Source: Escherichia coli (GTDB lineage: Bacteria; Pseudomonadota; Gammaproteobacteria; Enterobacterales; Enterobacteriaceae). Taken from it: a stretch of DNA of 324 nt. The stretch lies in NCBI RefSeq assembly GCF_003334815.1, contig NZ_QOWO01000136.1; one strand, given 5' to 3'. Shown piece after piece: positions 1-324 of the stretch; positions within the stretch are counted from its first letter, which is position 1; each line of letters starts with the position of its first letter. The translations under genes and the position numbers were made by a program. Below the pieces are notes generated by a model. It worked only from the letters and a program-made list of their open reading frames with translations, was not told the DNA's origin and searched no databases.

Positions 1-37
1 CCGTAGGCCGGATAAGGCGTTCACGCCGCATCCGGCA
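1..37 (-). repeat. REP/PU element, Z-type (probably Z2), reverse orientation; copy 1
   Basis: ccgtaggccggataaggcgttcacgccgcatccggca is the reverse complement of the Z-type PU consensus as I remember it (gccggatgcggcgtgaacgccttatccggcctacgg). Imperfect hairpin: arms 7-19 and 24-36, 13 bp with 2 internal mismatches, loop ttca 20-23. GTAG motif at 3-6. Confidence 0.8.
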
Positions 38-50
38 GTCGTGCGCAGAT

Positions 51-86
51 GCCTGATGCGACGCTAACGCGTCTTATCAGGCCTAC
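51..86 (+). repeat. REP/PU element, Y-type, forward orientation; copy 1
   Basis: gcctgatgcgacgctaacgcgtcttatcaggcctac matches the classical E. coli REP (Y) consensus. Imperfect hairpin: arms 51-64 and 69-82, 14 bp with 2 mismatches (one is G·U in RNA), loop 65-68. Ends in CTAC (83-86), the complement of GTAG. Confidence 0.85.
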
Positions 87-101
87 AAATTCCCGCGCCA
101 T

Positions 102-138
102 CCGTAGGCCGGATAAGGCGTTTACGCCGCATCCGGCA
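102..138 (-). repeat. REP/PU element, Z-type, reverse orientation; copy 2 (loop variant ttta)
   Basis: Same as 1-37 except C>T at 123, which lies in the hairpin loop. Confidence 0.8.
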
Positions 139-151
139 GTCGTGCGCAGAT

Positions 152-187
152 GCCTGATGCGACGCTAACGCGTCTTATCAGGCCTAC
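152..187 (+). repeat. REP/PU element, Y-type, forward orientation; copy 2
   Basis: Identical to 51-86. Confidence 0.85.
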
Positions 188-202
188 AAATTCTCGCGCC
201 AC

Positions 203-239
203 CCGTAGGCCGGATAAGGCGTTCACGCCGCATCCGGCA
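203..239 (-). repeat. REP/PU element, Z-type, reverse orientation; copy 3
   Basis: Identical to 1-37. Confidence 0.8.
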
Positions 240-252
240 GTCGTGCGCAGAT

Positions 253-288
253 GCCTGATGCGACGCTAACGCGTCTTATCAGGCCTAC
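253..288 (+). repeat. REP/PU element, Y-type, forward orientation; copy 3
   Basis: Identical to 51-86. Confidence 0.85.
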
Positions 289-303
289 AAATTCCCGCGC
301 CAT

Positions 304-324
304 CCGTAGGCCGGATAAGGCGTT
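304..324 (-). repeat. REP/PU element, Z-type, reverse orientation; copy 4, truncated by the window edge
   Basis: ccgtaggccggataaggcgtt matches the first 21 nt of the Z-type PU in copies 1-3; the window ends before the loop and second arm. Confidence 0.7.

Follow-up and report, generated by a model that had tools for sequence, protein, structure and literature searches.

A 101-bp tandem repeat from Escherichia coli as a segment of the copy-number-variable BIME-2 array REP31 between mhpE and mhpT

A stretch of DNA that consists of nothing but a repeat raises the question of where in the genome it belongs and whether it does anything there. We addressed this for a stretch of 324 nt from Escherichia coli (assembly GCF_003334815.1, contig NZ_QOWO01000136.1; hereafter the window, numbered 1–324). 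The window proved to be an internal slice of a tandem array of bacterial interspersed mosaic elements of class 2 (BIME-2), the array listed as REP31 at positions 374931–375366 of strain MG1655, between the genes mhpE and mhpT. Repetitive extragenic palindromes (REPs), BIMEs and the mhpE-mhpT array have been known since the 1980s–1990s. The REP31 array is thus an already described and ordinary member of a known family. We hold it very probable that the window is best explained jointly by its identity as BIME-2 array REP31, by a polymorphism of 0–7 repeat units at this locus, and by roles inferred from homologous arrays.

Tandem Repeats Finder reported the whole window (1–324) as a single array with a period of 101 bp (3.2 copies, 97% matches, 0% indels, score 627). 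An ungapped repeat finder recovered three 122-nt copies within the window at a spacing of 101 nt and with 98–100% identity. This periodicity far exceeded chance. Units 1 and 3 were identical, and unit 2 differed from them at three positions (123, 194 and 202). The first two bases ('CC' before GTAGG) were the final 2 nt of a preceding spacer, and at its right end the window included 19 nt of a fourth Y palindrome. Since the window opens with the end of a spacer and closes inside a fourth palindrome, the array is cut at both edges.

Each unit consisted of an inverted Y palindromic unit, a 13-nt linker, a Z2 palindromic unit and a 17-nt spacer. The palindromic units were located with the canonical E. 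coli Y, Z1 and Z2 sequences quoted in Durrant 2024 (PMC11208160). The Y query (TGCCGGATGCGGCGTAAACGCCTTATCCGGCCTAC) matched the minus strand at 3–37, 104–138 and 205–239, with 1, 0 and 1 mismatches of 35; the second copy carried the loop variant TTTACG. A fourth Y copy on the minus strand, cut by the window edge, occupied 306–324. The Z2 consensus matched the plus strand, inverse to Y, at 51–87, 152–188 and 253–289, differing at 3 of 37 positions, of which two fell in the loop, and the three Z2 units were delimited as 51–86, 152–187 and 253–288. No match to the Z1 consensus was found in the window within 6 mismatches. The sequence between Y and Z2, here named neutrally the head-to-head linker (GTCGTGCGCAGAT), lay at 38–50 and recurred at 139–151 and 240–252. 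What we call the tail-to-tail spacer (AAATTCCCGCGCCATCC) lay at 87–103 and 289–305, with the variant AAATTCTCGCGCCACCC at 188–204. Their counterparts are labelled 'l' and 'U' motif, respectively, in the REP325 array by Qian et al. (PMC4550694). Every palindrome in the window had a GTAG or CTAC foot: on the plus strand, GTAG began at 3 (3–6), 104, 205 and 306, and CTAC at 83 (83–86), 184 and 285.

The palindromic units were predicted to fold into stable hairpins. As RNA, the first Y copy reached −20.9/−21.3 kcal/mol and the first Z2 copy −21.4/−21.9 kcal/mol; for every palindromic unit the energy was about −21 kcal/mol in RNA of either strand and about −12 kcal/mol in DNA, with an internal loop of 1–2 nt. 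At most 2 of 200 shuffled sequences folded as well. The units are thus imperfect palindromes of 30–40 nt that form a stem-loop with an internal mismatch, as REPs do. On the minus strand, the Z2-linker-Y unit (window 1–101) favoured one long Z2-Y hairpin (−52.7 kcal/mol) over two local hairpins. Minimum-free-energy folds of the whole window were dominated by long-range pairing between units (−171 and −200 kcal/mol on the two strands); these were not taken as biological structure, and the local hairpins were folded separately. According to these models, the array can form REPIN-like or inter-unit structures besides a row of REP hairpins.

REPs are defined by a GTAG 5' of the stem foot, and BIME-2 elements are composed of y and z2 REPs inversely oriented to each other, with short linkers between them, and form tandem copies that differ in number from strain to strain (Ton-Hoang 2012, PMC3333891). 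The window showed inverse Y/Z2 alternation, linkers of 13 and 17 nt and tandem copies, and the copy number varied between strains, as described below. It was extragenic in all fetched records and its sequence was abundant in the genome: with the window as megablast query, BIME-2-like matches were found in all 5,426 complete E. coli genomes, at a median of at least 31 places per genome. The IHF consensus (WATCAANNNNTTR) had no match in the window with up to 1 mismatch. Since Y and Z2 alternate across short linkers and an L linker with an IHF site is absent, the element is specifically a BIME-2. The related BIME-1 (RIB/RIP, Y-L-Z1), which likewise joins an intergenic Y REP to an inverted Z-type REP, was considered and rejected on the absence of both a Z1 match and an IHF site. 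BIME-1 is built with Z1, has a long L linker that includes an IHF site, and is found in single copy (PMC3333891), whereas the window contains Z2, lacks the IHF consensus and is tandem. The window also resembles REPINs, the substrates of RAYT transposases, in its inverted REP pairs, its 5' GTAG and the stem mismatches that TnpA-REP requires (PMC3333891), but no RAYT gene adjoins the mhpE-mhpT array.

The locus was identified through near-identical sequences. Among the matches listed from the 5,426 complete genomes, all near-identical full-length ones (99–99.7%) were in the mhpE-mhpT intergenic region, and none was 100% identical over the full length. The closest listed genome was that of E. coli DLI.5a, in which the window aligned to positions 3001–3324 of the retrieved region (L002) with 1 mismatch. 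The array of DLI.5a (2702–3448) comprised 7.4 units and continued beyond the position of the window for 299 bp on the left and 124 bp on the right. In MG1655, the mhpE-mhpT intergenic region is 577 bp long and contains 4.4 units; the supplement of Harris 2026 (bioRxiv 10.64898/2026.03.23.713779) lists it as 'REP31, Tandem, 375366-374931, mhpE, mhpT'. REP31 of K-12 has the unit sequence, spacer, linker and unit variants of the window, namely 'C-type' units and a 'T-type' unit, which carries TTTACG and CTCGCGCCAC. In contrast to the window, the K-12 allele begins with a degenerate unit of 99 nt, and its best match to the window has 9 mismatches. The window has a canonical unit to the left of its T-type unit, which is absent from K-12-like four-unit alleles, so it represents a rarer and longer allele such as that of DLI.5a.

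Both mhpE and mhpT lie on the minus strand of the window, and the order of transcription is mhpE, about 40 nt, the array, 93 nt, mhpT. Since the stop of mhpE is about 40 nt from the array and the start of mhpT 93 nt past it on the same strand, the array stands at the 3' end of the mhp operon, upstream of mhpT. It therefore has the position of a REP-type element of a 3' untranslated region (3' UTR), downstream of a gene, on the transcribed strand and between genes in tandem or convergent arrangement. A crude consensus scan of the mhpE-mhpT intergenic region, uninformative on Rho-dependent events, detected neither a sigma-70-like promoter nor an intrinsic terminator. The Harris 2026 supplement lists a NusG-dependent (Rho) termination region at MG1655 375401–375492 on the minus strand, 35 nt from REP31. 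It is antisense to the mhpT 5' UTR and corresponds to the plus strand of the window, immediately beyond the mhpT-side end of the array. Antisense transcripts running from mhpT toward the array may terminate there.

These results bear on an initial annotation made from the letters of the window alone. It had proposed a 101-bp array in which Y and Z palindromic units alternate and which runs off both edges and is longer than the window. All of this was borne out: the window starts with a spacer end at base 1 and ends in a cut Y at 324, Y matched the minus strand with 0–1 mismatches of 35 and Z2 the plus strand with 3 of 37, and related alleles reached 7.4 units. The periodicity continued on both sides in DLI.5a, and coding sequence, whose start right at the window edges would have refuted the annotation, began 93 nt and about 40 nt past the array ends. 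The genome search that it had suggested for the locus and its flanking genes led to mhpE-mhpT and, in K-12, to REP31. Its expectation of a site between convergent genes or at an operon 3' end held for the operon 3' end (mhpE, array, mhpT) and failed for convergent genes, the flanking genes being co-directional on the minus strand. The 101-bp array is non-coding, as it had also concluded: the longest open reading frame (ORF) in the window had 39 aa and the region was intergenic in annotated genomes. The reason it had offered, a unit length that is not a multiple of 3, is a weak argument alone.

The number of units at this locus varied widely. The intergenic regions of eight strains had identical flanks and differed by whole units according to the formula Y(l-Z2-S-Y)n (l, linker; S, spacer), with n = 0, 1, 2, 3, 4, 5 and 7. 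A query composed of 1 kb from the mhpT side and 1 kb from the mhpE side, in which the span of the match gives n directly, found the locus in 4,925 of the 5,426 genomes. Allele frequencies were taken from 59 evenly spaced records. The commonest allele was n = 0, a single Y REP, in 31 records and thus about half of the sampled strains; n = 4 followed with 12 records and n = 1 with 8, plus one with an insertion of IS621, while n = 3 was found in 4 records, n = 2 in 2 and n = 7 in 1 (the strain of the query itself). Long alleles were thus rare, and an independent sample obtained with another query agreed on the distribution. Two of the n = 0 alleles (H124 and H125) were 10 bp longer than the others (span 2052 versus 2042) owing to a small indel in the intergenic flank. 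About 9% of the complete genomes (501 of 5,426) had no match to the mhpT and mhpE flanks, which means that they lack the mhp locus or have it disrupted. One record (H150) keeps just 66 nt of mhpT.

Differences in n were also present among K-12 laboratory strains. MG1655 and JM109 had n = 4, with the unit order degenerate, T, C, C'; XL1-Blue had n = 3, the T unit being lost, and XL10-Gold had n = 5, its C unit being duplicated twice. If the assemblies are correct, K-12 derivatives have gained and lost units over decades; assembly error is the alternative. The seven-unit array of DLI.5a (L002, 2702–3448) had the order degenerate, T, C, C(t), T, C, C', Y. Judged by its unit sequences, it looks like the K-12 order degenerate, T, C, C', Y with a three-unit block of 303 bp duplicated, which points to unequal exchange between non-adjacent units over slippage of single units. 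In K-12-like alleles, the unit beside mhpT (intergenic positions 94–192) was 99 nt long and had a damaged Y palindrome (GGACAAGACGTTTATCGCATCC). The edge unit is decaying, while the interior units stay 97–100% identical.

Outside E. coli proper, a scan of GTDB species representatives for the tail-to-tail junction matched Escherichia sp. E1V33 alone, at yjdM-yjdN (2 units) and at an array beside mhpE; the unit type is thus essentially confined to Escherichia. The sequence retrieved around mhpE from this genome (contig NZ_RHJI01000028.1; L014, 11076–11147) stops inside a BIME-2 array just 3' of mhpE, perhaps because the draft assembly is broken at the repeat. It shows that an array of at least one unit at the mhpE locus exists outside E. 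coli proper.

A sister of the window array is REP325, which comprises naRNA1-6 and is the BIME-2 array between yjdM and yjdN. In MG1655, REP325 has 5.8 copies (about 6 units) of a 100-bp unit that is homologous to the 101-bp window unit over its full length, spacer included (TACAAATTCCCGC...CCGTA). The two arrays share the Y-linker-Z2-spacer architecture and co-directional flanking genes. They are separate loci that differ in detail: the REP325 linker, read from the unit consensus, is AACGGTGCCGACT versus GTCGTGCGCAGAT in the window, longer by one nt if the adjoining base is included, and the Z2 loop is TTGC in REP325 and TAAC in the window. The unit variants and the spacer sequence of the window fit mhpE-mhpT and not REP325. 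Rfam family RF02564 (naRNA4/CssrE) is built on the 77-nt Y-l-Z2 block of REP325 (Qian 2015, PMC4550694), and every full unit of the window exceeded its gathering score of 59.5 bits. The matching blocks lay on the plus strand at 6–83, 107–184 and 208–285 (85.0, 87.2 and 85.0 bits), with a truncated match at 309–324; on the minus strand, the units scored 62–62.7 bits. The model in effect recognises any Y-l-Z2 unit, and a match to it means 'BIME-2 unit', not a dedicated small RNA gene. Weak Rfam matches to miRNAs and to Pseudomonas P17 were far below the gathering scores and were discarded as chance matches to palindromes. The strand in the naRNA4 sense is the mRNA strand in REP325 and the antisense strand in the mhpE-mhpT array, so that the two arrays have opposite orientations relative to the flanking transcription.

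What could such an array do at the end of the mhp operon? Transcription from the mhp operon promoter would carry the array as the 3' UTR of mhpABCDFE, on the minus strand of the window. The RNA would then form a row of hairpins, two per unit and about −21 kcal/mol each, which would block 3'-to-5' exonucleases and stabilise the upstream mRNA, and would partly terminate or attenuate read-through into mhpT. By analogy with other arrays, we put at about even chances such an RNA-level role, in which the number of units could tune the ratio of mhpT to the mhp operon. The Y units, as DNA, may in addition be preferred sites of DNA gyrase; this role, which is compatible with the one in RNA, appears comparably probable from the behaviour of BIME-2 elsewhere.

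The analogy draws mainly on REP325, which attenuates its downstream gene about 10-fold, in part Rho-dependently, stabilises the upstream mRNA and yields a ladder of hairpin-ended transcripts; genome-wide, tandem gene pairs that contain REPs show upstream-biased expression (Harris 2026, bioRxiv 10.64898/2026.03.23.713779). Since no sigma-70-like promoter was detected between the array and mhpT, the region is compatible with mhpT relying on read-through. For the gyrase role, cleavage by gyrase is enriched in BIME-2, chiefly in y REPs; the enrichment does not depend on transcription, and blocking transcription raises the signal (Sutormin 2019, PMC6379681). BIME-2 sites are mostly found between supercoiling domains and have been proposed to be topological barriers (PMC10592627).

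Several points weigh against this account. Terminal REPs had no genome-wide effect on mRNA half-life (Harris 2026, bioRxiv 10.64898/2026.03.23.713779). Our literature search yielded no expression, half-life or gyrase data on REP31 itself, and on mhpT transcription or REPs at mhpT it gave nothing useful beyond Lin 2011 and the Harris 2026 supplement. REP31 is not named in the text of Sutormin 2019 or in the supplements searched, and the latter mention neither mhpE nor mhpT. The array is inverted relative to REP325 with respect to transcription, so the transfer of REP325 behaviour would be an assumption, although the hairpin energies are equal on both strands despite this opposite orientation. 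With a single Y REP (n = 0) in about half of the strains sampled, possession of several units is dispensable and may be neutral. The promoter scan was a crude consensus scan, and the assignment to mhpE-mhpT is based on a near-identical allele rather than on the window's own flanks.

The best-surviving alternative is that the multi-unit array has no selected host function and is a selfish or neutral, minisatellite-like expansion of an ancestral single Y REP, driven by recombination, slippage or RAYT activity. We regard this as possible, somewhat short of even odds; for the multi-unit state it has to be taken seriously, because no allele is as common as n = 0 (31 of the 59 strains sampled). It also accommodates the variation of n in K-12 laboratory lineages (4 in MG1655 and JM109, 3 in XL1-Blue, 5 in XL10-Gold), the resemblance of the seven-unit allele to a three-unit block duplication of the K-12 allele, the decaying 99-nt first unit with its damaged Y stem in K-12-like alleles, and the ability of TnpA-REP to cleave BIMEs and exchange their strands in vitro (PMC3333891). 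On the other side, the sister array REP325 does affect its neighbours, with the roughly 10-fold effect on the downstream gene reported by Harris 2026, and the interior units have kept 97–100% identity, though homogenisation by recombination would give the same. A neutral origin would, moreover, be compatible with side effects on mRNA or supercoiling.

A second alternative places the primary role in the DNA: as a topological barrier or a strong gyrase site, acting independently of transcription, the array would insulate the mhp operon from mhpT and the genes downstream. The window has four Y units, the REPs in which gyrase cleavage of BIME-2 is especially enriched and persists, with an increased signal, when transcription is blocked (PMC6379681), and the location of most BIME-2 sites between supercoiling domains (PMC10592627) fits a barrier. 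Yet only 'a subset' of BIME-2 elements is cleaved (PMC6379681), REP31 is unnamed in the text of that study and in the supplements searched, and n = 0 strains manage without the array. We consider a primary role of this kind unlikely, with perhaps one chance in a few.

Either role could in principle be adjusted through the number of units. The array would grow and shrink by unequal recombination, by slippage between units or by RAYT-mediated strand exchange, and unit number (0 to at least 7) might act as a heritable, fast-mutating 'rheostat' on mhpT read-through or gyrase insulation. We find this doubtful, and distinctly less probable than a primary role in the DNA. If it were true, the differences in n would be an adaptive tuning of 3-hydroxyphenylpropionate uptake versus catabolism and not neutral drift.

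Each unit could instead be a gene for an naRNA4-type nucleoid-associated small RNA that condenses the chromosome together with HU. The three full units do score 85–87 bits against a gathering score of 59.5, and a nucleoid role was reported for REP325 (Qian 2015, PMC4550694). However, the best match is to the plus strand, which is antisense to the mhp operon, so that read-through would yield RNA in the 62-bit orientation; the consensus scan found no promoter-like site on either strand; and the Rfam model in effect responds to Y-l-Z2 units of BIME-2 in general. In addition, deletion or overexpression of REP325/naRNA leaves the nucleoid volume unchanged and REP-REP contacts are absent in Hi-C (Harris 2026), in a study whose authors include one from the original naRNA claim (bioRxiv 10.64898/2026.03.23.713779). 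Such a gene is therefore very improbable here. A protein-coding array, as suggested by the 'hypothetical protein' annotated in some RefSeq records under several matches (H10–H14, H20, H37 and H97), can be dismissed with near certainty, since the longest ORF of the window has 39 aa, the 101-bp period shifts the frame at every unit and alleles differ by whole 101-bp units. One such feature, a pseudogene fragment in strain Z217-4 (L012, 1071–1240), is flagged 'frameshifted; incomplete', lacks both N-terminus and C-terminus and is partial in mid-contig; this PGAP call is spurious and stems from REP-derived ORFs in protein databases.

Apart from any role in expression, the mhpE-mhpT array is a hotspot of rearrangement junctions, as shown in the literature, and a target of IS621, of which we observed insertions. 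About 20% of the junctions of lac amplifications involve the REP array between mhpE and mhpT (Lin 2011, PMC3161906). The bridge-RNA recombinase element IS621 uses ATCAGGCCTAC in REPs as its target (Durrant 2024, PMC11208160), and each unit of the window has one copy of this natural target, at 76 (76–86), 177 and 278. Two strains, PT62 and CUVET16-321, carried this IS110-family element inside the mhpE-mhpT array. In PT62 (L010), IS621 occupied about 2905–4190 with the junctions ...CCACCCGTAG|ATACTGTT... and ...GGGATAATACA|AGGCCGGATAAGG...; the insertion was at the GTAG foot of a Y unit (GTAG|GCCGG), where the target on the other strand is ATCCGGCCTAC, one base off the usual ATCAGGCCTAC. In CUVET16-321 (H116), the span exceeded that of the flanks by 1,420 bp. 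TnpA-REP (RAYT) needs GTAG and a stem mismatch and cleaves and recombines BIMEs in vitro (Ton-Hoang 2012, PMC3333891); by analogy, RAYT is a candidate driver of unit gain, beside unequal recombination or slippage.

A stretch that Rfam labels three times as 'naRNA4' and PGAP sometimes as 'hypothetical protein' is thus simply a BIME-2 array. As a discovery this amounts to little; the allele series with its frequencies, the differences between laboratory strains and the recurrent IS621 insertions are mildly useful additions. For E. coli genomics, the REP31 locus is a repeat that breaks assemblies and a recurrent landing site of IS621. For the family, the REP31 allele series is a convenient natural set for testing REP arrays as tunable terminator or stabiliser elements.

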